From the NCBI GenBank assembly GCA_965209025.1, contig OZ242375.1, forward strand, positions 2,261,380 to 2,325,379: a stretch of 64,000 bases of DNA, in the 5' to 3' direction. The DNA comes from Acidimicrobiia bacterium (GTDB taxonomy: Bacteria; Actinomycetota; Acidimicrobiia; Spongiisociales; ZC4RG35). Numbering within the stretch: the first letter of the stretch is position 1; each line of letters opens with the position of its first letter. Shown in pieces: positions 5,894-48,764 of this stretch. Position numbers and translations under genes: made by a program. A model generated the notes under the pieces. That model was not told the DNA's origin. It saw nothing but the letters and a program-made list of their open reading frames with translations, and ran no database searches.

Positions 5894-5975
5894 TACACCC
5901 AACGAATTCAACACCGGGCGTATCATCGGATCGGGTGACGCGCCCGGTGTTGAACCAAACGAGACGGGAGAGCCC

Positions 5976-6905: not shown

Positions 6906-7837
6906 AATCCGCCTCACCCCGTTCCCGGAGCGAGCGCCGGCGCTCGGGCGGATGGCTGATGCGGATTGTGCGGGACCCCACGGCGCTGTTCGGTGTCCTG
7001 GTCCTGGCGTTGCTGGTCGCCTCCGCACTGTTCGCCCCCATTATCGCTCCGCTCGATCCCAACAAGCAGGACCTGGCGGCCAGGTTGCTTCCACCCTTCT
7101 ATGCCGAGGGCGGCTCGTCGGGACACCTCCTCGGCACCGACCAACTGGGCCGGGACGTCTTGTCCCGAATCATTCATGGAGCAAGGATCTCCCTGACCAT
7201 CCCGCTGGTGTCGGTGACCCTGGCCGGTGTCTTCGGGACTGCGGTGGGTTTGCTGGCGGGTTACCGGGGCGGGAAGACAGACGCCTTCATCATGCGCATC
7301 GTCGACACCCTGTTCTCCTTCCCCGGGCTTCTCCTGGCGTTGACGATCCTCGCCGTGGTGGGGCCGAGTTTCTGGACTCTGGCGATCGTGCTGTCACTCA
7401 GGATCTGGATGGTGTTCGCCCGGATGACCCGGGGACTGGTCCTGTCGGCGAGGGAGGCCGAATACGTGGAGGCGGCGGAGTTGGTCGGCGCTTCACCGGT
7501 TCGGATAATGCTGCGCCATATCGCGCCCAACCTGACCGCGCCGCTGCTTACCTTGGCGGTCCTCGAGTCGGCTCATGTGATTTTGTCCGAGGCCGCCCTC
7601 TCATTCCTTGGATTGGGAATCCAGCCGCCCCAGACATCGTGGGGACTCGACGTGGCGATCGGTCGCCAGTACGTCTTCTCCGCTCCTTGGTTGATCATCT
7701 TCCCCGGGCTCGCCATCGCGGTGGCCGTCCTCGGAATCAATCTCCTGGCGGGTTGGCTGAGAGTGGCCGCCGATCCCCAGGAGAGCGCTAAGCGTTTCGC
7801 GGCGGCGGCCGATGCCCCCTCGGCTTGGTCGGGATGA
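6902..7837 (+). CDS. ABC transporter permease (DppC/OppC-like)
   Basis: The real start is the ATG at 6902 (MKSASPRS...LMRIVRDPTALFGVLVLALLV), which overlaps the upstream stop as ATGA. The longer track ORF from 6452 is an out-of-frame overlap with the previous permease. Confidence 0.85.
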   Translation: MKSASPRSRSERRRSGGWLMRIVRDPTALFGVLVLALLVASALFAPIIAPLDPNKQDLAARLLPPFYAEGGSSGHLLGTDQLGRDVLSRIIHGARISLTIPLVSVTLAGVFGTAVGLLAGYRGGKTDAFIMRIVDTLFSFPGLLLALTILAVVGPSFWTLAIVLSLRIWMVFARMTRGLVLSAREAEYVEAAELVGASPVRIMLRHIAPNLTAPLLTLAVLESAHVILSEAALSFLGLGIQPPQTSWGLDVAIGRQYVFSAPWLIIFPGLAIAVAVLGINLLAGWLRVAADPQESAKRFAAAADAPSAWSG

Positions 7838-8847
7838 TCCGCTCCGACCACCTTCTGGAGATTCGCAACCTCGAGGTTGTCTTCCCGACTCGGGAAGGCA
7901 CTGTCCAGGCAGTCCGAGGTGTCTCCTTCACAGTCGACGCGGGTGAGTCACTGGGCGTCGTGGGTGAATCGGGGTCGGGCAAGAGCACGCTGGCGCGTGC
8001 GGCTCTCGGGCTGATCGAGTTACCGGGCCGGATTGCGGGCGGCGAGATTCTGTGGAAGGGACGGTCGCTCCTGGACAAGCGGGCGGCCCGCCGGATCCGG
8101 GGACGGGAGATCAGCATGGTGTCCCAGGATCCAATGGCGTCGATGAGCCCGATCCTCACGATCGGCACCCAGATGACCGAGGTCATGACCAGGCATCTGG
8201 ACATCGGGAGCAGGGAGGCCTTCACAAGGGCGGGCGATCTTCTGGAGAAGGTTGGGATCCCCGACCCGGGGCGCCGCCTCGGACAGTACCCGTTCGAGTT
8301 CTCCGGTGGCATGCAGCAGCGGGTGGTAATCGCCACCGCCCTGTCCTGTGATCCGATGATGCTGATCGCCGACGAACCCACCACGGCCCTTGACGTGACC
8401 ACCCAGGCCCAGATCCTGGAACTGATCTCCTCTCTCCAAAAGGACCTGGGGCTGGCCCTCCTCCTGATCACCCACGACCTGGGAGTGGTGGCCGGAGCCT
8501 GTGACCTTCTGAAAGTGCTGTACGCGGGGGAGATCGTCGAGTCGGGGACGGCCGATCAGCTGTTTCACCGCCCTCATCACCCGTACACAGCCGCACTTTT
8601 GGGATCCACGCCTCGTCTCGACGTCAAGGCGGACCGCCTCATTGCGATCGAGGGCCATCCCCCTGATCTTCGCCATGTCGGCAGCGGATGCAGCTTCACC
8701 CCTCGCTGTCCTCACGCCACAGCCCGTTGCGCCTCCGCGTCCCCGGTGCTCCAACCATCTGGGGTGGGTCGGGCATATGCCTGCTGGAATCTTCTGAACG
8801 GTCGAGAAGCCCAGGATCTTCCCACGGCGAGGGCCGGGCATGAGTGA
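7834..8847 (+). CDS. ABC transporter ATP-binding protein (DppD/OppD-like)
   Basis: Walker A GESGSGKS, signature FSGGMQQR, Walker B LIADEPTTALD, and a C-terminal oligopeptide-ABC extension with Cys residues. The ATG at 7834 overlaps the upstream TGA. Confidence 0.9.
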   Translation: MIRSDHLLEIRNLEVVFPTREGTVQAVRGVSFTVDAGESLGVVGESGSGKSTLARAALGLIELPGRIAGGEILWKGRSLLDKRAARRIRGREISMVSQDPMASMSPILTIGTQMTEVMTRHLDIGSREAFTRAGDLLEKVGIPDPGRRLGQYPFEFSGGMQQRVVIATALSCDPMMLIADEPTTALDVTTQAQILELISSLQKDLGLALLLITHDLGVVAGACDLLKVLYAGEIVESGTADQLFHRPHHPYTAALLGSTPRLDVKADRLIAIEGHPPDLRHVGSGCSFTPRCPHATARCASASPVLQPSGVGRAYACWNLLNGREAQDLPTARAGHE

Positions 8848-9817
8848 CGCTCTGCTGGAGGTGCAGGGGCTCACGGTCAAATACGATGTCGGCCGGGAGG
8901 GGTTCTGGGGTCAACACCAGACCCGGCTCACCGCGGTCGACGACGTGAGCTTCTCCATCGCTCGCGGTGAGACCTTCGGGCTGGTGGGTGAGTCGGGCTC
9001 GGGCAAGACCACGACCGGACGGGCCGTTCTCGGGAAGGTCCCCATTGCTTCCGGCCGTGTGATATTCGCCGGGCGCGACATCACCCAGGTGGAGGGACGG
9101 GAGCGGCGGGCGATACGCAGGAACATGCAACTGATTCCTCAGAACCCCTATGGCAGCCTCAATCCTCGCATGAAGGTGCGAGAGATCATCTCCGAGCCCT
9201 TGGTGGTGCACCGGCGGTTCAAGAACGCCAAAGGGGCCACCGAAAGAGTGGTCGAGTTGCTGGAGCTGACAGGGATGAACCCGGACGACATGCACAAATA
9301 CCCGCATGCGTTCAGCGGTGGGCAACGTCAGAGAATCGTCATCGCCCGGGCGCTGGCCCTGAACCCGGACCTGATCATCGCCGACGAGCCGGTGTCCGCC
9401 CTGGACGTGTCGATTCAGGCGCAGGTCGTGAACCTGCTCCAGGACCTTCAGCAGCGGTTACGCCTGACCTACATCTTCATCGCCCACGACCTGGCTGTTG
9501 TGCGCCACATCTCTCACCGCATAGGCATCATGTACGCGGGCAAACTGGTCGAGGTGGCGAAGGGAGAGAGCGTCTACCGGTTCCCGATCCACCCTTACAC
9601 CGAAGCCCTCCTGTCTTCCGTCCCGATACCCGATCCGAGGATCGAGCGCGGCCGGGCGGTGCAGGTGATCGCCGGCGAACCGCCGGACCTGATCCACCCG
9701 CCCATGGGTTGCCGCTTTCACACCAGGTGCCCCCTGGCCGAACCACGCTGCCGTGAGGCGGCCCCGCCCATGGAAGCCAAGACACCCGGCCACGAGGCTG
9801 CCTGTTGGGTGCGTTAG
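8840..9817 (+). CDS. ABC transporter ATP-binding protein (DppF/OppF-like)
   Basis: Walker A GESGSGKT, signature FSGGQRQR, Walker B IIADEPVSALD. It overlaps the upstream gene by 8 nt. Confidence 0.9.
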   Translation: MSDALLEVQGLTVKYDVGREGFWGQHQTRLTAVDDVSFSIARGETFGLVGESGSGKTTTGRAVLGKVPIASGRVIFAGRDITQVEGRERRAIRRNMQLIPQNPYGSLNPRMKVREIISEPLVVHRRFKNAKGATERVVELLELTGMNPDDMHKYPHAFSGGQRQRIVIARALALNPDLIIADEPVSALDVSIQAQVVNLLQDLQQRLRLTYIFIAHDLAVVRHISHRIGIMYAGKLVEVAKGESVYRFPIHPYTEALLSSVPIPDPRIERGRAVQVIAGEPPDLIHPPMGCRFHTRCPLAEPRCREAAPPMEAKTPGHEAACWVR

Positions 9818-36232: not shown

Positions 36233-36616
36233 TCAGTGCTGGTTAACAAAGGACCTCCACCGTTGGACCAACCGGATTGGGGGCATCCCCTCCCAGACGA
36301 AGGCGTCGCCGCTTCCGTCCACCGCGGCCGTGGTAGGCACGCGATCGACCGTGTGGGTCACGAAGAGATCGGGCTGCTCCGTCCACTTGATCTCCCGGAA
36401 CCCCTCGGCGCCTAGCACCTCGATCAGGCGCGAGCGCACCGGGTCACACCCCGGACACCGTTCTGAAGTGAACAGGGAAACGCCGGGCTCGAGGCCTTTC
36501 ATCGACCGGCGCCGGGGACGGCGACGCTTCAGGATCCTGGCGGCCAGGGCAATGAAGGCGCTTGCCGCCAGGGCCCCGAGGGGTAACCACAGCCGCAGCA
36601 TGTCCTCGACAGGCAT
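36233..36616 (-). CDS. Membrane-anchored thioredoxin/glutaredoxin-like protein
   Basis: 127 aa with an N-terminal TM (LWLPLGALAASAFIALAA), then a CPGC redox motif in a thioredoxin-fold-sized domain. Its start overlaps the pncB stop. Confidence 0.6.
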   Translation of the reverse strand: MPVEDMLRLWLPLGALAASAFIALAARILKRRRPRRRSMKGLEPGVSLFTSERCPGCDPVRSRLIEVLGAEGFREIKWTEQPDLFVTHTVDRVPTTAAVDGSGDAFVWEGMPPIRLVQRWRSFVNQH

Positions 36617-38085
36617 CAGCCTTCGCCGATCATCACCGCCGCCAGCACCCGGTCGGACAGCGCCCGCAGCCCGGGACTCCGGACCACCGGATAGGGCTCG
36701 GGATCCACCAAGTCCAAGCAGGCGGGCGGGAGGCGGGCCATGTCTGCTCGCCGTCTGGCCCGGGCCGCGTGAAGGCTTTCCTCTCCGGAGAGCCTCCCCT
36801 CTCTCCAGGCGTCTTCAAGTAAAGGCTCGGGAGGAGCCGTCCCTTCCCGGTCGGGCACCTCGTCCGCCAGGGTCACCATGTCCCCTCGGGCGTACCCCTC
36901 GTCTCCGTAAAGGCGCCACAGGCTCTTGCGGCCGGGCGGCGCCGACTTGGCCAGGTCGTCGGTGCGTTTGAATGCATGTCGCCAGCGACGGTCCTGGCGC
37001 ACCGCCGTCAACTTGAACACCCCGTCGAGATACGGCGCGCCTTGCGAGGTTGCAAGCCGGCTCCCCACTCCGAATACCAGCCGCCCGATGATCCGGTCGG
37101 GGTCTTCGGCGTCCCGGGTCAGTTTCTCTGCGAGCCGGGAGATGGACAATTCATCCAGGCGGTCGGACAGGACGATGGGCACATTCCCGAAACCGGCTTT
37201 GTCGAGCATCCGGACGGCGGCCGGAGCCAGGGTCGCCGGGTCCCCGGAGTCCAGTCGAATCCCCGCCGGCCGGTGGCCTCTGGTGCGTAGTTCTTCGAAC
37301 ACTGTGATGGCATTGGGAATGCCCGACTCCAGGGTGTCTATGGTGTCCACCAAGAGCACGCAGTCATCGGGATAGATCCGGGCGAAGGCCCGAAAAGCAT
37401 CCAGTTCCGTGCCGGCCAACGCCATGAATGCCTGGACCAGAGAGTGGGCATGGGTGCCCTTGGCGGGCAGGCCGACCTTGTGGGACGCCCCCACATTCGA
37501 GGAGAAGTCCGCGCCTCCCACCAGGGCGGACTCGGTGGCCAGGTTGGCGCCCAGTCCCGCCGCTCGGCGCATCCCGAACTCCAGGACGGTCGCCGACCGG
37601 GCGGCCTGTTTGATCCTTGCCGCCTTGGTGGCCACCAGGGTGGCGAAGTTGCGGTGGTTCAGCAGGGCGGTCTCTACCAACTGGGCCAGGGCCAACGGTC
37701 CTTCCACCACGGTGATCGGAGTATGGGGATGGACCAACCGCCCGTCGGGCGTGGCCCGCAGGATCAGTCGGCGGAAGTCCCCGTTGGCTTCCAGCCAGTC
37801 CAGGAAGTCCTTTCCGAAGAGGGGGGCGCCCGATGCGGAGCGCATGTGGGCCAGGGCGACCAATTCCTGGTCCCCGTAGCGGTACCTCTCCAAGCGGTCC
37901 GCCAAAGCCCCGAGGCCCGCCGAGACACAATACCCCGCCCGATGCTCTCCATAGGATGGATAGGTGCGGAAGTAGTGCTCGAAGCGGGCCTCATAGTCAG
38001 CGATCCCGTGGCTGAAGTAGACCTGGGCCATGGTCAACTGGTAGAGGTCGGTCAGCAGGACGCCGTGCTGGATGGGACTGGTCAT
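36616..38085 (-). CDS. pncB: Nicotinate phosphoribosyltransferase
   Basis: 489 aa. The N-terminus is LLTDLYQLTMAQVYF. Other typical NAPRTase blocks are FGMRRA and SGDPATL, among others. Confidence 0.85.
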   Translation of the reverse strand: MTSPIQHGVLLTDLYQLTMAQVYFSHGIADYEARFEHYFRTYPSYGEHRAGYCVSAGLGALADRLERYRYGDQELVALAHMRSASGAPLFGKDFLDWLEANGDFRRLILRATPDGRLVHPHTPITVVEGPLALAQLVETALLNHRNFATLVATKAARIKQAARSATVLEFGMRRAAGLGANLATESALVGGADFSSNVGASHKVGLPAKGTHAHSLVQAFMALAGTELDAFRAFARIYPDDCVLLVDTIDTLESGIPNAITVFEELRTRGHRPAGIRLDSGDPATLAPAAVRMLDKAGFGNVPIVLSDRLDELSISRLAEKLTRDAEDPDRIIGRLVFGVGSRLATSQGAPYLDGVFKLTAVRQDRRWRHAFKRTDDLAKSAPPGRKSLWRLYGDEGYARGDMVTLADEVPDREGTAPPEPLLEDAWREGRLSGEESLHAARARRRADMARLPPACLDLVDPEPYPVVRSPGLRALSDRVLAAVMIGEG

Positions 38086-38175
38086 CTCTTTTGTGAGATT
38101 ACGCCAATTGCGAGAGTAAGACTTCGACCCGGTATACGGGTCTGCGCGGTATTCTTCCGGCTACCTTTATTCCCC

Positions 38176-39372
38176 ATGGGAAAGTCCTTGCTGTCCCTGG
38201 TCGACGGCCTCGTGTTCGACGGAGTCTCTCGGGACCCCGCGGAGCGCCCGGTGCACATCGAGGGAGGAGTGGTGGTGGGGCTTGACGGTCCGCCACCGGA
38301 TGGGGCGCGCGTCATCGAGGTTGGCGGTCGCCTGATCACCCCGGGCCTGATCGACGCCCACTTCCATGCTTATGGAGTCGACTTCGAGATGATGAAGCTG
38401 GAGAGCCTTCCTATGAGCTACGTGGCTCAAAAGGCGGCCCGGCGGCTTGATGCGGCCCTCCAGAGAGGGTTCACAACCGTGCGGGACCCGTCGGGAGGAG
38501 ACATAGGGCTGCGCATGGCGCTTGAAGAGGGATTGATGAGCGGGCCGCGCTACCTCTACACCGGCCCGGGGCTCACCCAGACCGGCGGTCACGGCGATCC
38601 CCGCCCCGCCCACATCTTCGCCGAGCACACCTGCGGCTATCTGAGCGAGGTGGTGGACGGTCCTGACAATCTTCGCCGGGCCGTACGGGAAAGGATCCGT
38701 ACCGGCGCCCATGCCATAAAGATCTTCGCATCGGGAGGCGTGATGTCCCCCACCGACCCGATTCGCCAGGTCCAGTATGACGCAGAGGAGGTTCGGGCGG
38801 TCTGCGCGGAGGCAGCCAGGCTCGACTCGTATGTGGCTGCCCACGCTTACTCACCTGAAGCCATCACTCACGCGGTGGCAAACGGGGTGAGAACCATTGA
38901 ACACGGCAACTTGCTGGACGCCGAGGCCGCCGCGCTAATGGCGGAACGGGGCGCCTATCTGGTGCCCACCCTGATCTGCTACGAAGCCATGAAACGAAGG
39001 GGAGAGGACCTGGGCCAACCCCTCGAGTCGCAACGCAAGAACCTGGAAGTGGTTGAAGCGGGCATCGCATCCTTGGAGATCGCCGGGAGTGCCGGAGTCC
39101 GGGTGGGAATGGGCACCGACCTGATCGGAGACCTCGAGGACGAGCAACTCTTCGATTTCCGCGTCCGCAGCGAGGTCATGGAGGTGGGGGAGATGCTCCG
39201 CGCCGCCACTTCGGTGAATGCCGAGATAATCCGCCGTCCCGACCTGGGCGTCATAGAGGTGGGCGCCACCGCCGACCTGGTGGTGTTGGCGGGCAACCCT
39301 TACCAGAGGCCGGACGTGCTTTGGGATCCCGAACGAACGGTCATACAGGCGGGGACGGTGGTGCGGCCTTAA
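38176..39372 (+). CDS. Amidohydrolase family protein (metal-dependent hydrolase, imidazolonepropionase/Xaa-Pro dipeptidase-like)
   Basis: The ATG is at 38176. Blocks PGLIDAHFH (HxH), IKIFASGGV, AAHAY, IEHG and GTDL. The 244 codons upstream in the track ORF are antisense to pncB. Confidence 0.8.
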   Translation: MGKSLLSLVDGLVFDGVSRDPAERPVHIEGGVVVGLDGPPPDGARVIEVGGRLITPGLIDAHFHAYGVDFEMMKLESLPMSYVAQKAARRLDAALQRGFTTVRDPSGGDIGLRMALEEGLMSGPRYLYTGPGLTQTGGHGDPRPAHIFAEHTCGYLSEVVDGPDNLRRAVRERIRTGAHAIKIFASGGVMSPTDPIRQVQYDAEEVRAVCAEAARLDSYVAAHAYSPEAITHAVANGVRTIEHGNLLDAEAAALMAERGAYLVPTLICYEAMKRRGEDLGQPLESQRKNLEVVEAGIASLEIAGSAGVRVGMGTDLIGDLEDEQLFDFRVRSEVMEVGEMLRAATSVNAEIIRRPDLGVIEVGATADLVVLAGNPYQRPDVLWDPERTVIQAGTVVRP

Positions 39373-39575: not shown

Positions 39576-40124
39576 TCAGCGGCGGCGACCTCGGCAGATG
39601 ATCAACTTGCTGGCGGCGATGCCGGTAATCCTTATAGTGGTGGCCCGTTCAGCATCCAGGCAGTCGTGAGTGGATAGTTCGTATCCGACTCCGTTGACCT
39701 CGACTCCGCACCTTCCTGCAAAAACGAAAATAAAGATGTCTTCGTCTTTCTCGACTGTCAGTAAGCATTGGCCCTCGGGTTCGAGGTTCACATTGGTGAC
39801 GGCCAATTGGAGATCGGGATGGGACAGGGTAGTTTCTCCGGGCGCTTCCCCGATCGACCCTTTAAGCAAGTGGCGGCCACCCAACCGGGGAAGAAGCTGG
39901 GCTAGCGGAAGATCCAGAGCTTTGCTGATCCTTAACAGAACGGGCAACGAGGCATGGGCATGGCCGTTTTCGATGTCGCTCAGGTGGGCCGCCGAGATCT
40001 GGGCTGTCGATGCCACGACCCGAAGAGTCAGGGAGAGACGGGTGCGCTGCTCTCTAAGGCGGAACCCCACTTCCTTCGCTAGTGAAGCCGGACTTCGGTG
40101 TTCGGTACCCGGGTGGCGAGCCAT
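39576..40124 (-). CDS. XRE-family HTH transcriptional regulator with C-terminal cupin domain (copy B)
   Basis: The HTH region is LSLTLRVVASTAQISAAHLSDIENGHAHASLPVLLRISKAL, followed by a cupin-sized beta region. The start is taken at MARHPGTE. Confidence 0.75.
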   Translation of the reverse strand: MARHPGTEHRSPASLAKEVGFRLREQRTRLSLTLRVVASTAQISAAHLSDIENGHAHASLPVLLRISKALDLPLAQLLPRLGGRHLLKGSIGEAPGETTLSHPDLQLAVTNVNLEPEGQCLLTVEKDEDIFIFVFAGRCGVEVNGVGYELSTHDCLDAERATTIRITGIAASKLIICRGRRR

Positions 40125-40128
40125 GGCG

Positions 40129-40716
40129 TCAGAAGAGAGCGGGACAGGCGATGATGAGTATCCGACCGTGCAGGTCTTCGCCCCGGCCCTCCGTCTCATG
40201 GGTTTCGTGAGCGGAGTAGTGGAGGGTGTCGCCTGTGGTGAGATGGAAGTGATTGTCGCCGAAGTTGATCTGGACCCAGCCGGAAAGCATCACCAGAAAC
40301 CTTTCGCCGTAGTGGCGGTATCGGGCAGGGACATCGGAGGTTCTAAGGATCACCACTGTGTAGGCGCCTTCGGTACCGTGGCTACCTACCACGCGATACA
40401 CCGGGCCGTCTCCTACGCGAAGATCGCGCCCTTCTCCGGCCCGGGTGATGTGCACCAAGGGATCTGTGGAATCCAGCAAGTCGGTCATCTCTACGCCAAA
40501 TGCAATCGCCACCATGGCGAGGGCGGTGAGAGAAGGCATCGCAGATCCGCTCTCTATCTGGGACAGATAAGAGGTTGTGTAGCCGGTAGCAGCCGCCACA
40601 TCTGAGAGACGTAGTCCTCGGTCACTCCGGAGGCGGGCTATGTTGCGCCCCACGGCCGCAAGTTCAACGTCCACCCGATTAAACGTAAACGGAATGGTGG
40701 GAGACCACAAACCCAC
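40129..40716 (-). CDS. XRE-family HTH transcriptional regulator with C-terminal cupin domain (copy A)
   Basis: The HTH region is LRLSDVAAATGYTTSYLSQIESGSAMPSLTALAMVAIAF. The cupin region has H/E residues (HYGERFLVMLSG...HYSAHETHE). Confidence 0.75.
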   Translation of the reverse strand: MGLWSPTIPFTFNRVDVELAAVGRNIARLRSDRGLRLSDVAAATGYTTSYLSQIESGSAMPSLTALAMVAIAFGVEMTDLLDSTDPLVHITRAGEGRDLRVGDGPVYRVVGSHGTEGAYTVVILRTSDVPARYRHYGERFLVMLSGWVQINFGDNHFHLTTGDTLHYSAHETHETEGRGEDLHGRILIIACPALF

Positions 40717-40734
40717 TCCTATCGCTTGAATGGG

Positions 40735-41733
40735 TCAGGTGAGCATCTCGGTCAAGAATCGTATCAAGTTGTCTCCCATTATGCGCCTGGTGGCGGCGAC
40801 CCCTAACTGTCTGGCCACCGCCTCGCCGATGGACGGGTAGTCGGAGGGGGATTCGAGGTTCGCCACCACTGGGAATTCGTCGGCCAGAGCCCCTCCCAGG
40901 ATCGGGTCCACTATGCGGAGCACATCGTCGATGAAGTCGGCGCCGATCCCCACCTGCGCCTCTCCTATCAGGGAGGCGGCATGGGCGATATGGTTCACGT
41001 AGTCGTCTAGTGAGGGCAGGTCGGCTAGGAAACCACCGAAGGCGTTCAGGCACACCATGCCACCGGTTCGGGCGATGCCGACAATCTGCTGGTCGGTGAG
41101 GTTGCGGGGGTGCGGATACAGTTTACGGCACGATGAGTGGGAGGCGATCACCGGTCGGCCGGCTACCTCCAGGACGTCGCGGAGTCCTGCATCGGAGAGG
41201 TGGCTTACGTCGATCGTAATCCCGCACCTCTCCAGTTCCCCGACCGCTTCCCGGCCCAGAGGCGTCAGCCCGCCGTTGGCGAACCGGACGCCTACGCCGT
41301 CGGCCAGCATGGTGCGCCGGTTCCAGGTGAGCGAGGCGATTCTCACCCCCAGGCGGGCGAACCCGTCTATCAGTCCGAGGTCGGCGCCGAAAGGCTCCCC
41401 GCCCTCAAGCGCCAGTACCAGCGCGATCCGTCCAGAAGTGATTGTCTGAGAGATCTCCTCGGCTGTTTCGACGATGGCAACGTCTGTCGGGTGGAGGGAG
41501 GCCATCCACCGGGCGGTCTCCAATATGACCATGGCCCGGCGGAGGGCCCCCGAGGTCACGAACTGCTCCTCTGTGTAAACCGGCAACACTTGAAGCACCA
41601 CCCCGCCGGATCGAAGTCGAGGCAGCCAGAAATCTCCGAAGGGATCGACCTCGCCGCGGCGGCGCCGATGCTCCACGGCAAGCAGCAGGTCGTTGTGGGA
41701 GTCGGCTACCGAGAACCGGTGGTGGGCCTCCAT
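40735..41733 (-). CDS. Membrane (renal-type) dipeptidase family M19
   Basis: DSHNDLL (HxD metal motif), LEGGEP, DVSHLSD, SHSSCR, and GADFID. The ATG at 41733..41731 overlaps the hydantoinase stop (TGATG). The 14 codons further upstream in the track ORF are probably not used. Confidence 0.85.
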   Translation of the reverse strand: MEAHHRFSVADSHNDLLLAVEHRRRRGEVDPFGDFWLPRLRSGGVVLQVLPVYTEEQFVTSGALRRAMVILETARWMASLHPTDVAIVETAEEISQTITSGRIALVLALEGGEPFGADLGLIDGFARLGVRIASLTWNRRTMLADGVGVRFANGGLTPLGREAVGELERCGITIDVSHLSDAGLRDVLEVAGRPVIASHSSCRKLYPHPRNLTDQQIVGIARTGGMVCLNAFGGFLADLPSLDDYVNHIAHAASLIGEAQVGIGADFIDDVLRIVDPILGGALADEFPVVANLESPSDYPSIGEAVARQLGVAATRRIMGDNLIRFLTEMLT

Positions 41734-43280
41734 CAACCTCCCAGCGGCCCTGCCGCCTTGACTTGCACCCGGCACCCACCGCCTGGAACGTAGGTCATGG
41801 GCACCTCCACCACCGACGTGATGCGGGTTTGATCAGGGTCAGCCCCAGCTTCCACCGCCGAGGCCAACGCCTCGGCGCGGGCGGCCTCCAGGCACTCCTC
41901 ACGACTGGAGGAGCCGTACTGATAGACCCGATCGACCGTGCCCGACGCCTCAGAGATGGCCGCTCCGAAGGCGTTGGCCACTTCGTAGTGGCGGGGTCGG
42001 ATCACCTCGGAGGCGCCCGAGACCCGCTCGGAAACCAGATGAGCGCCTCCCCCCACCGCCAAGAGCGGCATGGGCCGGCGGCTGGCCTTCATCCGCTCGC
42101 AGTGGGCGGCCAACTGCTCATCCACCCACGATAGGGCCCGGTCAACCGTGGCGGGATCGAGGTCGTCCACCGCAGATGCGTCTCCGAAGTCCTGGAGTCG
42201 CCCTCCCGCCACCGAGATGTCGGAGAGTGTAAGCGTGCTGCCTCCCGACACCAGGGCATCCGACGTGACCCGGTAGCCGACAGAATCCGGACCCACGGTG
42301 ACTCCCGTAACATCAGGTCGGACGATGGTTCCGCCTCCCAGGCCCATTGAGATCAAGTCCGGCATCCGGAAGTTGGTACGCACGCCGCCCACGTACACCG
42401 CCGCGGCCGATTCCCGGGGGAATCCGTCCACCAGAATGCCGATATCCGTGGAAGTTCCGCCCACGTCTACCACGATTGCATCGGCGAGTCCGGCCAGGGA
42501 GCAAGCGCCGCGCATCGAGTTTGTCGGACCTGATGCCAGGGACAGCACCGGCATGGCAAGAGCGTGAGCCGAGGTCATGAGGGTTCCGTCGTTCTGGGTG
42601 ATGTAGGAGGCGGCGTCGATCCCATGGCTGGCTAAGGCGTTGTCAAGTCCGTCCACCACCGCTTTGGCAACCCCCTGCAGCGCCGCGTTCAGGATGGTGG
42701 CATTCTCGCGCTCCAACAGTCCAAGGGTGCCGACCCGGTGGCTTAGTGAGATAGGGAAGTCTTCTCCCAACTCCTCGGCGAGGATCTCAGCGGCCCGGAG
42801 TTCGTGTTCGAAGTTGGCCGGGCTAAAGGCGCAGGACACCGCCACGGTCCCGGCCTTCTGCGCTTCGGTGGTGAACCGACGGATGGCCTCCTCGTCTAGA
42901 TCGGCGATCACTCGGCCGTCGTATTCGTACCCGCCCTCGGTGATGGCGACCTCGGTGATTACCGAGTCTCGTAAGTCGTCTGGCCAATCCGCGCCAGGGG
43001 AGACCGCCAACGAGGAGGGAGCCGCGAGGCGGAGGACCGCCACCCGGCCAAGTCCCAAACGCTGGATGATGGCGTTGGCGGAGTGGGTGGTTCCCAGCAT
43101 GGCCTGGCGTATGCGGGACAGGTCCGCGCCCCTGGACACGGCTTGGATCGCCGCTGAAATACCATCCAAAGGGTCAGCCGTCGTGGGAGCCTTGTGGGCG
43201 GCCAACACCGCCCCGGCCCCATCCACCAAGACCGCATCGGTGTTGGTTCCGCCGACATCTATTCCCAGTCGCAGCATCAT
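41733..43280 (-). CDS. Hydantoinase/oxoprolinase family protein (HyuA-type, ATP-grasp/ASKHA-like), no HyuB partner nearby
   Basis: MLRLGIDVGGTNTDAVL, and DVGGTSTDIG for the second ASKHA phosphate motif. The start ATG at 43280 overlaps the DUF917 stop (ATGA). Confidence 0.8.
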   Translation of the reverse strand: MMLRLGIDVGGTNTDAVLVDGAGAVLAAHKAPTTADPLDGISAAIQAVSRGADLSRIRQAMLGTTHSANAIIQRLGLGRVAVLRLAAPSSLAVSPGADWPDDLRDSVITEVAITEGGYEYDGRVIADLDEEAIRRFTTEAQKAGTVAVSCAFSPANFEHELRAAEILAEELGEDFPISLSHRVGTLGLLERENATILNAALQGVAKAVVDGLDNALASHGIDAASYITQNDGTLMTSAHALAMPVLSLASGPTNSMRGACSLAGLADAIVVDVGGTSTDIGILVDGFPRESAAAVYVGGVRTNFRMPDLISMGLGGGTIVRPDVTGVTVGPDSVGYRVTSDALVSGGSTLTLSDISVAGGRLQDFGDASAVDDLDPATVDRALSWVDEQLAAHCERMKASRRPMPLLAVGGGAHLVSERVSGASEVIRPRHYEVANAFGAAISEASGTVDRVYQYGSSSREECLEAARAEALASAVEAGADPDQTRITSVVEVPMTYVPGGGCRVQVKAAGPLGG

Positions 43281-44344
43281 GTCAACCATCCTTTGTAGTC
43301 GAGGTCGAAGCCGAACGCCCTTGGTCCCGCCACCTCCAACATTCCCTCCTGATGCCATTCGGGAGCACAGGGCAGGCCCACCACATTCACCCGCTGGCCA
43401 TACCCGAGCGTCTCGGTGTTGATAGGGATGGCCGTCTCGGCGTCCAGGATGCAGATCAGATCGGGCACGGTCACCACCGGCTCACCATTCTCCCAAGCCA
43501 CAAGGAACTCGTTCTGGATGGCAACTTGCATCACCCGCTCCGCGTTGTCCCTGGACTCGATGGTGACAGTGCCCTTCGAGAATCCCTCAGTGGTCTCGCG
43601 GTGGACGTCGGAGATCACGCCGGAGAAGATGATCCTCCCATCGGAGGCGGAAAGGAAACGACCATAGGCGCCTTCCTCCCCCCGCTGGACGGCAGCTAAG
43701 AGGCGCCCTAGTTCCATGCAGTAGGTCACCGATCCGGTAATGGCGTGTTTTATCACCGAGGAAGCGTTCATGGAGTAGCTGGAGAAGGCGTTGGCGAGGG
43801 TGAGCGACATCACCGCTCCCCGGACCAGGGTCTCGCCCAACTGGTTGGTGTTGGTCTCGAAGACACAGAGGTTGCCTTTCTCGTCAGCCACCGACATGGG
43901 CGAGGCCTTGATGCCGGCCAGAGTGAAGACGGTCATCTCGACTTGTGGAAACGCCCGCCTCATGCCGTCGGCATCCACCACCGGGAGCCCCATCTCGGCT
44001 GCGACCGCCATGGGGACGAGAGTGTTGAAGCCGCCCACTTCGATGGGCATCAGGGCGACGGGAGCGCGGCCCAGGTAGGATGCCAGGGCCTCGATGGCCG
44101 CCACGAACTCGGTTCCGGCCGGGATTTTCTCCAGGAGCACCGTGGGCGCACCTACCACCGCCACGGTCATCACCAGTCCGTCGGCAGGGAGTTCCCGGGC
44201 GTCGACGATGCCCACCGGCCCGTAGGTGCTAATCGCCTGCCGCAGCATAAGACGGGCCACGTAGGGGTCGCCGCCTCCACCTGTTCCGAGCAGCGTCGCT
44301 CCCAAGGCGAGATCGTCGACCTGATCAAGGGTGAGGGTTTTCAT
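43277..44344 (-). CDS. DUF917 family protein
   Basis: 355 aa. LGATLLGTGGGGDPY, PIEVGGFN and VVDADGMRRAFP are characteristic blocks of DUF917 (PF06032) as I recall it. This family is typically found next to HyuA-like genes. Confidence 0.75.
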   Translation of the reverse strand: MKTLTLDQVDDLALGATLLGTGGGGDPYVARLMLRQAISTYGPVGIVDARELPADGLVMTVAVVGAPTVLLEKIPAGTEFVAAIEALASYLGRAPVALMPIEVGGFNTLVPMAVAAEMGLPVVDADGMRRAFPQVEMTVFTLAGIKASPMSVADEKGNLCVFETNTNQLGETLVRGAVMSLTLANAFSSYSMNASSVIKHAITGSVTYCMELGRLLAAVQRGEEGAYGRFLSASDGRIIFSGVISDVHRETTEGFSKGTVTIESRDNAERVMQVAIQNEFLVAWENGEPVVTVPDLICILDAETAIPINTETLGYGQRVNVVGLPCAPEWHQEGMLEVAGPRAFGFDLDYKGWLT

Positions 44345-44367
44345 GTTCTGTATTCCTTTTCGCCTTT

Positions 44368-45327
44368 CTATGTTCTTTTGTTCTTGGTCCAGTTGTCAAC
44401 GGCCACCGCCGCCACGATGACGCTTCCTTGAATAAGCCGTTGGATGATCGGATCGATCTGGCGGAGGTTGAACCCGTTGATGATCAATGCGATGAACAGG
44501 GCGCCGAACACCGTTCGCCACACCGCTCCATCTCCGCCGGCGATGGAAGTTCCCCCCACAATGACGGCCGCCAGGACCGCGAAAACGAAACCGAAGTGGT
44601 CGCTGGGCTGGGCAGCGAGAGTCCGAGACGCCGAAAGAGCGCCCGCCAGTCCCGCCGCGGCACCCACCAGCACGAAGGTCACCATTGTGATTGACTTGAC
44701 GCGTATCCCTGCCAGCCGAGCGGCCTCCACGGCGCCGCCGATGGCGAACACATGGCGACCGAATTTGGTTCGCGACAACATAATCCAGAACACCGCTACT
44801 ACGACCACAGCAATCCATGTGGCCTTGGTGAGTCCGAGGATGCGTCCCCTGGCTATCTCCGAAAAGGCTGTGTCGCGGATGCGAATGATGCTCCGATCGC
44901 TTATCAGGAATCCGATTCCGTAGAAAACGAATGAAGTGGCGAGGGTGGCGATAAACGAGTTGACCCGGATCCAGGCCACGACTGCTCCGTTCACCAGTCC
45001 GTACAGGGCTCCGATGGCGACACCTGCAAGAAGGCCCAGAGCGCCGTTCCCGGTGGCATTTACGGTGAGAGCCGTGAGGATGCCGGCGTTGATGAAGCTG
45101 GCCGAGATGGAGATGTCGAAATTACCCCCGATCAGGGTAAGGGTCATCGCCGCCCCAGCTATGAGAAGAAGAGACTGCTGATCGAGGATGTTGCGAAGAT
45201 TGGCGGAGGAGAGGAAAGCCTCGGTGGTTAGGCCCAGCAATGCGAAGAGGGCGACGGTTATCCAGATTATCCCGTAGTCGGTGAGGAGCGATAAGCGGCG
45301 CGGGGTGGGAGTTGCGGGCTGCGTCAT
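44368..45327 (-). CDS. ABC permease, ribose/monosaccharide (CUT2, RbsC-like) type
   Basis: The ATG at 45327 (MTQPATPTPRRLSLLTDYGIIWITVALF) overlaps the ATPase stop (ATGA). It has a BPD_transp_2-like profile of about 10 TM helices. Confidence 0.8.
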   Translation of the reverse strand: MTQPATPTPRRLSLLTDYGIIWITVALFALLGLTTEAFLSSANLRNILDQQSLLLIAGAAMTLTLIGGNFDISISASFINAGILTALTVNATGNGALGLLAGVAIGALYGLVNGAVVAWIRVNSFIATLATSFVFYGIGFLISDRSIIRIRDTAFSEIARGRILGLTKATWIAVVVVAVFWIMLSRTKFGRHVFAIGGAVEAARLAGIRVKSITMVTFVLVGAAAGLAGALSASRTLAAQPSDHFGFVFAVLAAVIVGGTSIAGGDGAVWRTVFGALFIALIINGFNLRQIDPIIQRLIQGSVIVAAVAVDNWTKNKRT

Positions 45328-46823
45328 GCTGGCGGGGCTCCGAAAGCCAGGGTCATGACATCCGTTTCGGTGGCCCCTTCCCCGCAAAGCTCTCCGACTA
45401 TACGGCCACCCCACATGACGATGATCCGATGTGCAAGGCCCAAGGCTTCTTCCAGTTCGGAAGAGACCAAAAGCACGGCTATGCCCTGGGAAGCGAGTTC
45501 CACCAACAGGTTGTAGATTCCCCGCTTCGCTCCCACATCGACCCCTCGAGTGGGCTCGTCGGCGATGAACAGGTGAGGCTGGGAGACCAGCCACCGTCCA
45601 AAGAGGGCCTTTTGCTGGTTACCCCCCGACAGTTGGAATGTTCGGGTTTCGATAGTTGCGCCAGTCAGCCCGACCGCCTCGGCAATCCCCTGGGCGACCG
45701 AGGACTCTCTGCCGGAGCGCACCACTCCCCCGAGAGTGACAAAGCGGGCAAGATGGGCCAGGGTTATGTTGGCGCGCACCGGAAGCAGCGGGAGTAGCCC
45801 CTGCGTGGAGCGTGATTCGGGGACCATAGCCACTCCCGCTCGAATCGCTTGGCGAGGCGAACAGGGTCGATAGGGATTCCCGTTCAGGTGCATCGAACCG
45901 CTGGTTGGGGGGTCGGCGCCGAACAGTGCACGGGCGAGCTCACTTCTGCCCGAGCCCACCAAACCGGCCAGGGTGACGATCTCCCCGGCGCGGATCTCGA
46001 AACTCACGTTTTCAAATGATCCCGTCCTGGTCAGATCCCGAACCGCAAGCACGGCCGGAGCTCCATGTCTGGGGAATTGTCTTGCCGGGAAGACGGTATC
46101 GAGACTTCTTCCGACAATGCCTTCGATCAAACTGGACCGTGACTCGGTTCGGGTAGGCGTGGTGCGCACAACCGCGCCGTCACGCATGATCGTGACGTAA
46201 TCGGAGATGGCGAGTACCTCATCCAGGAAATGGGAGATGTAAACCACGGTGACACCTTTTTCGGACAGTTTCTGGATCGTTTTTCTGAGGTTGGCGGCCT
46301 CGATGGATGAGAGGCGGGCGGTCGGCTCGTCCATGACGATCAGATTGGCGTCGCGGGCCAGGGAGCGTAGGATTTCCACCTTTTGTTGGTCGGCCACCGA
46401 CAGTGTGGACACCGGTTGGTCGGGGGGCACTTGGATACCGTACTCCTCCACCAGGTCTTCGAACCGGGCGCGGGTAGCGGCATGGTCAACCACCGGACCC
46501 CGTGTATGTTCGATTCCGAGATAGATGTTCGCTGCCGCTGACAGTTTTGGAACCAGCGACAGCTCCTGGGCGACCAAGGTGATTCCCAGAGCCAGGGCGT
46601 CCCGGGGCGACCTGAAGGCAACATGATTTCCCCTCACCGCCATGCTGCCCTCATCGGGGGAGAGCACTCCGGTGATGATTTTGCCCAGGGTGGTTTTACC
46701 TGCGCCGTTCTCGCCCACCAGTGCGTGGACGGCGCCTGCTTTTATCCTGACATCTACCGAGTTGAGTGCCACGGCGCCACCAAATCTTTTCGTGGCGCCG
46801 CGCACCTCTATGTGTGGTTTCAC
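45324..46823 (-). CDS. Sugar-type ABC ATP-binding protein with duplicated ATPase domains (RbsA/MglA-like)
   Basis: 499 aa. Walker A GENGAGKTT, with a second nucleotide-binding domain (GLVGSGRSE, LSGGNQQK, FIADEPTRGVD). Confidence 0.9.
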   Translation of the reverse strand: MKPHIEVRGATKRFGGAVALNSVDVRIKAGAVHALVGENGAGKTTLGKIITGVLSPDEGSMAVRGNHVAFRSPRDALALGITLVAQELSLVPKLSAAANIYLGIEHTRGPVVDHAATRARFEDLVEEYGIQVPPDQPVSTLSVADQQKVEILRSLARDANLIVMDEPTARLSSIEAANLRKTIQKLSEKGVTVVYISHFLDEVLAISDYVTIMRDGAVVRTTPTRTESRSSLIEGIVGRSLDTVFPARQFPRHGAPAVLAVRDLTRTGSFENVSFEIRAGEIVTLAGLVGSGRSELARALFGADPPTSGSMHLNGNPYRPCSPRQAIRAGVAMVPESRSTQGLLPLLPVRANITLAHLARFVTLGGVVRSGRESSVAQGIAEAVGLTGATIETRTFQLSGGNQQKALFGRWLVSQPHLFIADEPTRGVDVGAKRGIYNLLVELASQGIAVLLVSSELEEALGLAHRIIVMWGGRIVGELCGEGATETDVMTLAFGAPPA

Positions 46824-46889
46824 GGGTGAGTCAGACTACGACTTATCCGTCCCACTGGGCTTCGAAGTCCTCCACGTTGTCCTGAGTCA

Positions 46890-47939
46890 TCAACCCCTGT
46901 GGGGCACGCTGAGTGAGGGGTCCACACCGCCCCGATCGACTCCGGCCAATGCGTCCACCATTGCCTCCATGGCAAGCTGGCCTTCCGTGTAGGGTGCGCC
47001 GTAGAAGCCGCCCCACCACCGGCCGTCGGCCACCGCGTTGACAGCATAGGAGCTACCCCCGAAGCCGATAATCCGAATGCCTTCGACTCCCGCCTCGCGG
47101 ATGGCGATCTCCGCACCCTGCATGGATTGATCAGCGCCGAGCAGCACATTGATGTCAGAGGTCATGACCAGAATGTCCTGCATGGCGGCGAGCCCCACAT
47201 CAGGACCGAGATACTGACCTTCGCCCTCGGCGACTACCGTGACAGAGGACCCTGCGACCACATCGTCCCAGCCTGCCCGTATGGCCTCATCGAGTGGTAT
47301 ACCCCTTATGCCATAGAAATACACCACATTGCACGGATCGAAGTCGGCGCAGGCGGCCAGTGTCAAATCGCCGATTCTTGTTCCGCGCAGATAGGGCGGT
47401 TCGAATACCGCCGCTGCCTGGCCCTCGACTTGTGGTTCGACAGTGCTGAGGTCCTCTCCGACCACCTGATTCAGAGTTACGACCTCGATCCCGGCGTCCA
47501 GTGCATCAAGGATATCCGGTATCGCGGCGGCGCCGGTGAGGGCCACCAGGACAATGCCGTCATATCGCCCGGCGGTGATGGCGTCCTGGAACTGCTGTTG
47601 TTGCAAGGCGGGATCGAACTGGGCGTCGAATTCCGTTATCTCGATGTTGTTGGCGGCGGCCACTTCCTCCATCGCTCTTCGGGAAGCTGCCAGCCAAGTG
47701 TTGGCGGAACTCGCTGACAGATAGGCAACCTGCCGTGGTTCGGCCGGTGCTTCCGTGGTGGTTGTGGTAGGTGCTGCGGTCGTGGAGGTAGCTGGGGCCG
47801 CCGTTGTTGTGGTTGTGGGCGCAGCGGTGGTGGGAGTGTCAGCAGTGGAAGGTGCTTCGCTTGTTTCCTCTCCGCAGGCAGCCGCTACCAGCATGATGGC
47901 CGCCAGTAGCCATGTTGATTTTGCTTTGGGGAATCGCAT
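46890..47939 (-). CDS. ABC substrate-binding lipoprotein, periplasmic binding protein family 1 (RbsB-like)
   Basis: The start is taken at MRFPKAKSTWLLAAIMLVAAACGEE (lipobox). A Thr/Ala/Pro linker precedes a Peripla_BP_4-like body. Confidence 0.8.
   Translation of the reverse strand: MRFPKAKSTWLLAAIMLVAAACGEETSEAPSTADTPTTAAPTTTTTAAPATSTTAAPTTTTTEAPAEPRQVAYLSASSANTWLAASRRAMEEVAAANNIEITEFDAQFDPALQQQQFQDAITAGRYDGIVLVALTGAAAIPDILDALDAGIEVVTLNQVVGEDLSTVEPQVEGQAAAVFEPPYLRGTRIGDLTLAACADFDPCNVVYFYGIRGIPLDEAIRAGWDDVVAGSSVTVVAEGEGQYLGPDVGLAAMQDILVMTSDINVLLGADQSMQGAEIAIREAGVEGIRIIGFGGSSYAVNAVADGRWWGGFYGAPYTEGQLAMEAMVDALAGVDRGGVDPSLSVPHRG
47736..47861 (-). repeat. Thr/Ala/Pro linker coding region
   Basis: Encodes SEAPSTADTPTTAAPTTTTTAAPATSTTAAPTTTTTEAPAEP directly after the lipobox Cys. 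Confidence 0.8.
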
Positions 47940-48013
47940 TCGTTTCTTCTCCAATCTGTCAGCCAGGTGTGGCACATACCGTTCGGGCTTGAACGTCGGT
48001 CTAGAGAGTGCGC

Positions 48014-48045
48014 AAGATATTAGTACAGATATCAAGAAATATCTT
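48014..48045. promoter_or_regulatory. Nested inverted/direct repeats (AGATAT half-sites) in an AT-rich divergent promoter region; candidate operator
   Basis: AAGATAT (48014..48020) and ATATCTT (48039..48045) are perfect inverted repeats flanking a central AGATATC (48027..48033). The half-sites recur with a 12-nt spacing. The element lies in the conspicuously AT-rich gap between the SBP start (47939, -) and the pncA start (48180, +). Confidence 0.45.
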
Positions 48046-48179
48046 AGTGTAATCTCCTTAACATTAGGTATACACCCTTTTTATTCAGTAAAACCAAAAA
48101 GGAACTGATGACATCCCTCGCTTGGGGATTACGGGGTTGAACCCTCGATTGTGGCCAGGTACGCTTATGCCCTGAGATC

Positions 48180-48764
48180 ATGAGCCGGTTGTCCCCTCAA
48201 ACCGCGTTGGTGGTGGTGGATGTTCAGAACGACTTCGCCGACCCGGAAGGGTCCCTCTATGTCAGCGGGGCCGGGAAGGTGGTGGAAGCGGTGAACAGGC
48301 TGGTGGAGAAGGCGCAGGAAGAGGGGTGGCCGGTGTTCTACACACAGGACTGGCATCCGGAGACCACCCCCCACTTCGCCAAGGACGGGGGGATATGGCC
48401 GGTGCACTGCGTGGGCGGGTCCCGGGGAGCGGACTTCCATCCCGACCTGGTGGTCGAGGGTGTTTCGGTGAAGAAGGGCGGCGCCGGGGAGGACGGCTAC
48501 TCGGGGTTCACCATGCGGGACCTGGTGGAAGCCGAGGATCGCCCGACCGCCCTGCATTCCCTTCTGCAGGAAAGGAACATCGCCAGGGTGGTGGTGGTGG
48601 GGCTGGCTCTCGACTACTGCGTGAAGGACACCGCTCTGGACGCCGTTCGTCTTGGATATGAAGTGGAGGTGCCCCTGGACGCCACCGCCGCGGTCAACCT
48701 CTCCCCTGACGACGGGGATAAATCGATCGCTGCTCTGCAGGCAGCGGGGGTCTCAGTTAGCTGA
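48180..48764 (+). CDS. pncA: Nicotinamidase/pyrazinamidase (isochorismatase family)
   Basis: VVVDVQNDF, QDWHP, VHCV, and VVVVGLALDYCVKDTALDA (catalytic Cys). Confidence 0.85.
   Translation: MSRLSPQTALVVVDVQNDFADPEGSLYVSGAGKVVEAVNRLVEKAQEEGWPVFYTQDWHPETTPHFAKDGGIWPVHCVGGSRGADFHPDLVVEGVSVKKGGAGEDGYSGFTMRDLVEAEDRPTALHSLLQERNIARVVVVGLALDYCVKDTALDAVRLGYEVEVPLDATAAVNLSPDDGDKSIAALQAAGVSVS

Follow-up and report, generated by a model that had tools for sequence, protein, structure and literature searches.

The closest described relatives of the system analyzed here are the ATP-dependent cyclic-amide hydrolases HyuA–HyuB, OplA–OplB and CapA–CapB, in which a HyuA-like ATPase of the ASKHA fold, built from the domains Hydant_A_N and Hydantoinase_A, works with a second subunit; canonical HyuA is about 690 aa long. 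ATP coupling in this hydantoinase/oxoprolinase/caprolactamase class serves the opening of lactams of high thermodynamic stability (5-oxoproline and caprolactam are examples), and diketopiperazines are of similar stability. In a 64,000-nucleotide stretch of an Acidimicrobiia bacterium (contig OZ242375.1, positions 2,261,380 to 2,325,379; hereafter the window, from whose first letter all coordinates are counted), we analyzed a cluster at 39576–47939 that encodes a HyuA together with a DUF917 protein, an M19-family dipeptidase, a ribose-type ABC importer and two XRE-type regulators. With clusters of the hyuABCE type it has in common racemase (in relatives), amidase and transporter neighbors and the logic of ring handling, ring opening and amide hydrolysis, but its downstream amidase is an M19 enzyme and not a carbamoylase. 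The cluster is best filed as a variant of the ATP-dependent hydantoinase/oxoprolinase type in which the partner subunit is non-homologous and the amidase is a distinctive M19 enzyme, and we propose, with slightly better than even confidence, that it is a catabolic system for a small chiral cyclic amide, preferably a diketopiperazine of the proline type.

An earlier note on this DNA had described eight consecutive minus-strand genes, and both coordinates and strand were verified: Open reading frame (ORF) listing and translation give, in the direction of transcription, the genes for a substrate-binding protein (SBP, 46890–47939), an ATPase (45324–46823), a permease (44368–45327), DUF917 (43277–44344), HyuA (41733–43280, 515 aa), M19 (40735–41733), Reg1 (40129–40716) and Reg2 (39576–40124). 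Direct inspection of the junctions yielded, from SBP to Reg2, gaps of 66, −4, 23, −4, −1, 18 and 4 nt; the ATPase stop overlaps the permease start (ATGA), and the ATGA of DUF917/HyuA and the TGATG of HyuA/M19 are likewise exactly as claimed. Two gaps would change on correction, to 19 nt between SBP and ATPase if a frameshift described below is mended, and to 60 nt between M19 and Reg1 with a Reg1 start at 40674. Pfam agrees with the gene families that had been assigned to the SBP, ATPase, permease, DUF917, HyuA, M19 and helix-turn-helix (HTH) proteins, the cupin domains apart. From strand, junctions and conserved synteny we take the eight genes to be a real operon.

The DUF917/HyuA pair and its M19 partner

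The DUF917 protein matches S-Me-THD_N and S-Me-THD_C (PF06032 and PF20906, the current Pfam names for DUF917), each domain over its full length and at about 1e-55 (185.6 and 188.2 bits). Both domains, at full length, are shared with the (S-methyl)thiohydantoin desulfurases, whose named members act, by name, on five-membered cyclic ureide rings. As a family, DUF917 has thus lost its wholly uncharacterized status, since some of its members now bear this enzyme name. Because the window protein scores only 116.4 bits against a cut-off of 450 for the equivalog NF058532 and 102.6 against 440 for NF058529, it is, judged by these models, not a named (S-methyl)thiohydantoin desulfurase. A look-up of its exact sequence found no entry. 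Its context differs as well, with obligate HyuA pairing or fusion, M19 and an importer of the CUT2 class. The AlphaFold 2 model of the protein (pLDDT 87.6) has a sole PDB fold match in Foldseek, the structural-genomics entry 2o3i, and DUF917 as a structural homologue of HyuB was on this ground ruled out.

HyuA is recognized by Hydant_A_N (1.5e-34, 119.7 bits) and Hydantoinase_A (1.7e-29, 103.4 bits), the latter over profile positions 1–199 of 291 only, and its translation has both ASKHA phosphate motifs of the DxGGT type, GIDVGGTNTD and VDVGGTSTD. Its best PDB relatives are the N-methylhydantoinase 7hk5 (4e-27), the gamma subunit of acetophenone carboxylase and 6yra (deposited as 5-oxoprolinase), and the NCBIfam model for caprolactamase alpha matches it, too; all of these enzymes depend on ATP, and in each the ASKHA subunit has another subunit as its partner. 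The pair departs from the HyuA–HyuB class in two respects: HyuA is short and covers the Hydantoinase_A profile in part, and its partner is DUF917, a protein of unrelated fold. No HyuB (Hydantoinase_B) homologue was found by tblastn in the 64-kb window, just as the earlier note had it. What the two classes have in common is a second-subunit gene that adjoins the ATPase gene and is translationally coupled to it, and fused forms in eukaryotes. The 4-nt stop/start overlap of DUF917 and HyuA occurs in the window and in four related loci (L081, L082, L083 and L085), and an exhaustive HMMER search recovered HyuA–DUF917 fusions of 920–1451 aa, with the domains in the order Hydant_A_N, Hydantoinase_A, S-Me-THD_N and S-Me-THD_C, from the four protists Ancoracysta twista, Anaeramoeba flamelloides, Pelomyxa schiedti and Sulcionema specki (P0446, P0485, P0478 and P0482), which parallel HyuA–HyuB fusions such as the 1288-aa N-methylhydantoinase. 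The protist fusions and the translational coupling are good evidence that HyuA and DUF917 form one two-subunit enzyme with DUF917 in HyuB's position. By analogy with the family, this enzyme would hydrolyze a cyclic amide at the expense of ATP, and we propose DUF917 as the hydrolytic, substrate-specific partner of HyuA.

The third enzyme matches Peptidase_M19 (3.1e-82, 276.7 bits) and no NCBIfam model, and is only about 30% identical to human DPEP1 and to Sco3058 of Streptomyces coelicolor. It shares with them the signature of the TIM-barrel amidohydrolase family: All five metal ligands (H-x-D, E, H, H) align and are kept, as are the HPRN arginine and the GxDF aspartate, which we take to bind the substrate termini in Sco3058, and all of these residues are conserved in 33 cluster-linked orthologues. 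In contrast, the active-site histidine (His152 in DPEP1, His150 in Sco3058) is missing: A tryptophan stands at its position within the motif TWNRR (residues ~135–141), so that LTWNRRT replaces LTHSCNT of DPEP1 and LTHNDNN of Sco3058. The exact string SLTWNRRT is found in 27 of the 33 orthologues and the tryptophan in 32, and TWNRR marks the cluster-linked M19 proteins as a distinct subfamily. The coupling of the DUF917/HyuA pair to an M19 enzyme, emphasized by the earlier note, is confirmed by the TGATG junction and by a linkage that is kept in related genomes.

In Spirillospora sp. NBC_00431 (L046, 12636–13883), M19's place directly after HyuA is taken by a cog1228 amidohydrolase, which scores highest, though below the cut-off, with the model for Caulobacter-type Xaa-Pro dipeptidases (294 bits). 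It is 40% identical to the product of a cog1228-type amidohydrolase gene that the window carries in convergent orientation to the operon (38164–39372, start approximate, plus strand) and that reaches 224 bits with the Xaa-Pro-dipeptidase-like model NF051886, below the cut-off of 500. The exchange of M19 for a prolidase-like amidohydrolase argues for a ring-opened product that would be dipeptide-like, and the convergent amidohydrolase is possibly an accessory of the pathway. Downstream of the Spirillospora amidohydrolase follow a PucR gene and an ORF with a C-terminal part weakly like Dpp/Opp-type permeases; from this one partial match, the transporter there is probably of the Dpp/Opp (peptide ABC) type and replaces the CUT2 system.

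Conservation of the cluster and its importer

For a comparison across genomes, 80 genomic loci around DUF917 relatives were collected and the eight window proteins mapped onto them; synteny was counted in the DUF917 clade of at least 52% identity, using only loci with enough flanking DNA. HyuA directly follows DUF917 in 41 of 43 such loci; in 35 of 40, M19 follows at a distance of no more than 3.2 kb, and 29 of 37 encode an SBP orthologue (47–80% identity) no farther than 10 kb away. The genes are arranged either as SBP-ATPase-permease-DUF917-HyuA-M19, a layout seen in the window, in L002 and L003 and in the Chloroflexota loci L005 and L030, or as DUF917-HyuA-M19-PucR-(oxidase)-SBP-ATPase-permease. 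Searches anchored separately on the SBP and on M19 reach the same cluster, which is distributed over Acidimicrobiia, Chloroflexota, Pseudonocardiaceae, Streptomyces, Nakamurella and a metagenome-assembled genome labeled gammaproteobacterial; among its carriers are the cultured Streptomyces odontomachi and Nakamurella sp. YIM 132087 as well as Prauserella, Thermocrispum and Amycolatopsis. The transporter is the more variable part: The enzyme triad is accompanied by a major facilitator superfamily (MFS) transporter in Streptomyces and by no adjacent transporter in Nakamurella. The earlier note had named a lack of conserved gene order as grounds for giving up its proposal and had called for a neighborhood survey of DUF917, HyuA, M19 and CUT2 genes; in the relatives, the order is kept and the link is conserved. 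On this synteny, the enzyme core is not a chance neighborhood.

Distant DUF917/HyuA pairs (40–46% identity) present a different picture: M19 is absent except in L071, none has an SBP of the operon type, and the adjoining transport genes encode NCS1 permeases or ABC systems of the peptide type; several DUF917 genes per HyuA are frequent. Two to five tandem DUF917 paralogues per HyuA, often together with Dpp/Opp-type ABC transporters, occur in the distant loci L013, L048, L051, L052, L059, L061, L065, L077 and L079. Such sets of several paralogues per single HyuA suggest that DUF917 is the substrate-specific component and that its variants share one ATPase partner.

ORF clustering combined with Pfam and NCBIfam revealed recurrent accessory genes in the relatives. 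A regulator of the PucR family is present in 30 of 47 loci; further recurrent products are a protein of the Asp/Glu/hydantoin-racemase family, a DAO-type FAD oxidoreductase and an OCD-family protein that, at 371 bits, exceeds the equivalog cut-off of 322 for Δ1-pyrroline-2-carboxylate/Δ1-piperideine-2-carboxylate (Pyr2C/Pip2C) reductase. A small SnoaL/NTF2-like protein is encoded beside M19 in many loci, mostly between HyuA and M19, in actinomycete, Chloroflexota and 'gammaproteobacterial' loci (L004, L007, L013, L030 and L082–L085), and Pro_dh lies near the cluster in L082. None of the racemase, FAD oxidase, Pyr2C/Pip2C reductase, PucR and SnoaL-like genes was found in the window. It is therefore doubtful that the operon encodes a self-contained pathway, as had been claimed, since most relatives carry extra conserved genes that are absent here. 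Because these accessories are missing and the XRE pair is found only in the three closest genomes (L001–L003), we see the window as carrying a reduced version of the cluster with a lineage-specific regulator set.

The importer has the three-part architecture of RbsBAC and AraFGH, i.e., a ribose-fold SBP, a duplicated ATPase and a BPD_transp_2 permease, and its assignment to the CUT2/ribose class by the earlier note is in agreement with both the Pfam families and the fold. The SBP, a lipoprotein by the lipobox VAAAC in its translation, matches Peripla_BP_4 (1.9e-29, 103 bits), and its AlphaFold 2 model (pLDDT 82) finds its best fold matches in ribose-binding proteins (TM 0.83). The ATPase contains ABC_tran in two stretches within 499 aa, corresponding to the RbsA/AraG type with two fused nucleotide-binding domains, and the permease is AraH/RbsC-like (BPD_transp_2, 1e-37, 130 bits). 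For both proteins the best-scoring NCBIfam models are arabinose, xylose and ribose transporters, but the equivalog scores remain below the cut-offs: 26.7 against 337 bits for RbsB, 475 against 689 for AraG and 230 against 378 for AraH. The SBP itself is 19–22% identical to solved sugar binders. A family profile aligned to solved ribose binders places its invariant residues N157-Q158, A269, G294 and G314 at the positions that hold D-R, N, D and Q in sugar SBPs, presumably the ribose-hydroxyl contacts D89-R90, N190, D215 and Q235 of the E. coli ribose-binding protein; with about 20% identity in the alignment, this comparison is indicative only. Neither contact residues nor an equivalog-level score thus mark the SBP as a monosaccharide binder. 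It carries an invariant cysteine pair (C197 and C203), and its orthologues keep company with the DUF917-HyuA-M19 triad and not, as in RbsBAC/AraFGH, with sugar-catabolic genes. Because of the altered contacts, the sugar scores below cut-off and the other transporters in relatives, a sugar-like substrate deserves little weight on the sequence evidence, and the idea of a 'glycosylated or nucleoside-like' compound, which the note had derived from the importer class, is weakened.

In the window the SBP gene lacks one T near 46891 (GGTTGA versus GGTTTGATG) relative to L001 and to four metagenome runs. This 1-nt deletion (within 46843–46892) cuts off the conserved 16-residue C-terminal tail LMTQDNVEDFEAQWDG, and without it the reading frame would run on to 46843, which leaves 19 nt to the ATPase gene; the deletion probably reflects either strain variation or a mistake in the assembly.

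Proposed pathway and rival substrates

In the pathway that we favor, the lipoprotein SBP and the ribose-type ABC translocator would import the cyclic amide, and the short HyuA ATPase together with DUF917, standing in for HyuB, would open the ring at the cost of ATP. M19, as a binuclear metallo-dipeptidase, would then split the linear dipeptide-like product into amino acids, a step in which the prolidase-like amidohydrolase may also take part in this organism. In relatives, the racemase would epimerize, and the FAD oxidase and the Pyr2C/Pip2C reductase would turn a D- or cyclic imino acid into L-proline or pipecolate. Control would be exerted here by the XRE(-cupin) proteins Reg1 and Reg2 and in most other lineages by the PucR-type regulator. 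What the sequences show is the anatomy and family membership of the genes, their conserved synteny, the HyuA–DUF917 fusions and the intact metal ligands of M19; we infer that the ring is opened with ATP, in which order the reactions run and what the substrate is.

The racemase, the DAO oxidase and the Pyr2C/Pip2C reductase of the relatives, along with Pro_dh near the cluster in L082, point to a chiral ring derived from amino acids, and the preferred substrate is probably a 2,5-diketopiperazine containing proline or pipecolate. A proline-type diketopiperazine would best fit the accessories, the exchange of the dipeptidase and the enrichment of DUF917 and hydantoin-racemase genes beside cyclodipeptide oxidases in clusters without cyclodipeptide synthase (PMC11055893). 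A 5-substituted hydantoin or another lactam is a possible substrate as well. Literature on DUF917, thiohydantoin desulfurase, ergothioneine catabolism, hydantoinase with dipeptidase and diketopiperazine catabolism offered no described pathway for the cluster, in line with the statement of the earlier note that none fits.

Several points weigh against a diketopiperazine pathway: The window is devoid of the very racemase, oxidase and reductase on which the argument from proline and chirality rests; the M19 subfamily, without an equivalent of His152, may not be an ordinary dipeptidase; the fold of DUF917 is unlike that of HyuB, which reduces 'replaces HyuB' to a functional analogy; the DUF917 members named by NCBIfam act on thiohydantoin rings and so speak for hydantoins rather than diketopiperazines; the importer belongs to a sugar class; and the four runs that hold the sequence behave like DNA metagenome assemblies of flat depth and not like RNA. 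A bolder version of the proposal, which we offer as a tentative idea and think unlikely to hold in full, is that HyuA and DUF917 make up a two-component lactam hydrolase of a new ATP-dependent class, in which a non-homologous protein, DUF917, has taken the place of HyuB. The M19-linked clade, which is common among Actinomycetota and Chloroflexota and extends to sponge symbionts, would be the first system dedicated to diketopiperazine catabolism, supplied by an SBP whose ribose fold has been adapted to a heterocycle other than a sugar.

The main rival to a diketopiperazine is a 5-substituted hydantoin with M19 as carbamoylase, and a pyroglutamyl-type lactam is a lesser one. Classical three-step hydantoin utilization, modeled on hyuA-hyuB-hyuC-hyuE of Pseudomonas sp. 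NS671, would comprise import, racemization (in relatives), ring opening by HyuA and DUF917 to an N-carbamoyl amino acid, and its cleavage by M19. This is consistent with the family of the relatives' racemase, with the (thio)hydantoin rings for which NCBIfam names DUF917 members, with an N-methylhydantoinase as the nearest solved relative of HyuA, and with the frequency of PucR in relatives and the NCS1 permeases beside distant DUF917/HyuA pairs; even the loss of His152 in M19, with its conserved RR, could reflect a ureido substrate. We nonetheless consider hydantoin utilization rather unlikely: There is no M20 or nitrilase-type carbamoylase among the recurrent neighbors, a prolidase-like dipeptidase occupies M19's place in Spirillospora, and an imino-acid product would better explain the DAO and Pyr2C reductase accessories; moreover, natural 5-substituted hydantoins are rare, and M19 enzymes are not known to act as carbamoylases. 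If the substrate were instead a dipeptide with an N-terminal lactam or some other lactam, for instance a pyroglutamyl dipeptide or a lactam of the opine type, HyuA and DUF917 would open a ring like that of 5-oxoproline and M19 would cut the unblocked dipeptide. M19 enzymes need a free amino terminus, which such ring opening would yield, the ATP requirement suits lactam thermodynamics, and HyuA is homologous to 6yra and matched by the caprolactamase alpha model; yet no glutamate-specific accessory genes were seen among the loci, racemase and Pyr2C reductase are left unexplained, and bacteria normally remove pyroglutamate by a dedicated peptidase, which makes this alternative improbable.

A sugar or sugar conjugate, such as a glycosylated amide, an Amadori compound or an opine, would account for the CUT2 class of the importer, the ribose-binding fold of the SBP and the sugar models that score best with ATPase and permease, and the DAO family includes Amadori and opine oxidases. 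Against it stand the sugar-transporter equivalog scores, all far below their cut-offs, and the invariant N-Q, A, G and G at the five ribose-contact positions of the SBP family; the same enzyme triad is found with an MFS transporter in Streptomyces, probably with a peptide ABC transporter in Spirillospora and with no adjacent transporter in Nakamurella, and no glycosidase, kinase or isomerase was seen among the neighbors. We regard a sugar substrate as quite improbable. That the genes are chance neighbors, or that transporter and enzymes serve unrelated functions, is hardly credible: The transporter does lie 2–4 kb from the enzymes in most relatives, but the three-way synteny extends across phyla, stop and start codons overlap, and SBP orthologues co-vary with the enzymes. 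A creatinine/N-methylhydantoin pathway was considered on account of a flanking isochorismatase-family gene and the amidohydrolase, and was rejected: The flanking gene encodes a nicotinamidase (PncA model, 140.7 bits), pairs with pncB and is not conserved with the cluster, and an achiral ring would give the relatives no use for a racemase.

Regulators, genomic setting and significance

Reg1 and Reg2 close the operon. An HTH domain is recognized in both (HTH_31/HTH_3 at about 1e-10 in Reg1, with 40.4 bits for HTH_3; HTH_3 at 5e-10, 39.6 bits, in Reg2), whereas the cupin domains assigned by the earlier note are less clear: Cupin_2 falls just short of its cut-off in Reg1 (25.4 against 27.2 bits), and the C-terminal beta domain of Reg2 gives only faint cupin-type matches (Pirin_C_2 0.06, HutD 0.1). 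The note had also called the two proteins paralogues; BLASTP produces no alignment between them, hhalign of three-sequence profiles gives 95.7% over 136 columns, and they are by this comparison probably distant homologues and not close paralogues. Since its homologues begin at the motif VDVELAAVG, which lies 14 codons downstream of the ORF start, Reg1 probably starts at 40674; besides L001, such homologues are found only in L002 and L003. Reg1 resembles XRE-cupin regulators like PuuR in that HTH_3 at its N-terminus is followed by a probable small beta-barrel at the C-terminus, and it scores 30.8 bits with the PuuR model over residues 20–176. The pair differs from this type in its tandem arrangement, in scores far below the cut-off of 211 for both proteins and in its restriction to the three closest genomes.

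The AT-rich stretch between the SBP gene and pncA (47940–48179, read on the minus strand) is the intergenic promoter and putative operator region. It holds a perfect 8-nt inverted repeat, AAGATATT/AATATCTT, at 48014–48021 and 48038–48045 with an internal GATATC. The repeat that the note had pointed out is thus real, but the DNA preceding the SBP gene in L002, L003 and L030 showed no counterpart, and it was dropped as a conserved operator. No sigma-70 consensus promoter was found in 47940–48179, and the leader has no Rfam match to a riboswitch or other RNA element.

Operon and amidohydrolase gene are bracketed by two NAD-salvage genes, pncB for nicotinate phosphoribosyltransferase (36616–38085, minus strand) and pncA for nicotinamidase (48180–48764, plus strand, divergent from the SBP gene). 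Within this bracket G+C is 60–64%, compared with about 66% in adjacent 2-kb bins, and the operon stretch looks like an insertion between the pncB/pncA pair; the lower G+C and the phylum-crossing distribution of the cluster suggest horizontal acquisition. No paralogues of the eight operon genes occur elsewhere in the window, except for unrelated ABC ATPases. The nearest relatives are sponge-associated Acidimicrobiia, e.g., Candidatus Spongiisociaceae and Poriferisodalis, and the DNA runs that hold the window sequence are labeled as sponge metagenomes. Contig JAPPFD010000021.1 of the metagenome-assembled 'bacterium isolate RHO1_bin_22' shows 99–100% protein identity to the window in the genes compared. 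Each of the four metagenome runs contains a contig in which position 39625 (3′ end of Reg2) is connected to 37206 (inside pncB) by 12 extra letters, at a depth close to that of the main contig in one run; this junction may derive from a strain variant that is present alongside, or from an artefact of the assembly graph. A further run of same-strand ORFs at 4295–9817 (plus strand), two of which are weakly similar to ABC ATPases, looks like another ABC transporter operon that is apparently unrelated to the one at 39576–47939.

DUF917 is a large family, with 3923 representatives at 50% clustering, which is almost always paired with a short HyuA, and no HyuA/DUF917 pair has an assigned reaction. 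The M19-linked clade provides an unusually tight context for such a pair, with importer and dipeptidase and, in relatives, racemase, oxidase and imino-acid reductase, and it has carriers among actinomycetes that can be cultivated. Should the substrate prove to be a diketopiperazine or a stable lactam related to it, the cluster would fill a long-standing gap in the breakdown of cyclic dipeptides, for which the enzymes are largely unknown (PMC3852281), and a sugar-class SBP would have been recruited for a non-sugar ligand. For the sponge symbionts, it would mean another source of nitrogen from the host or the community.

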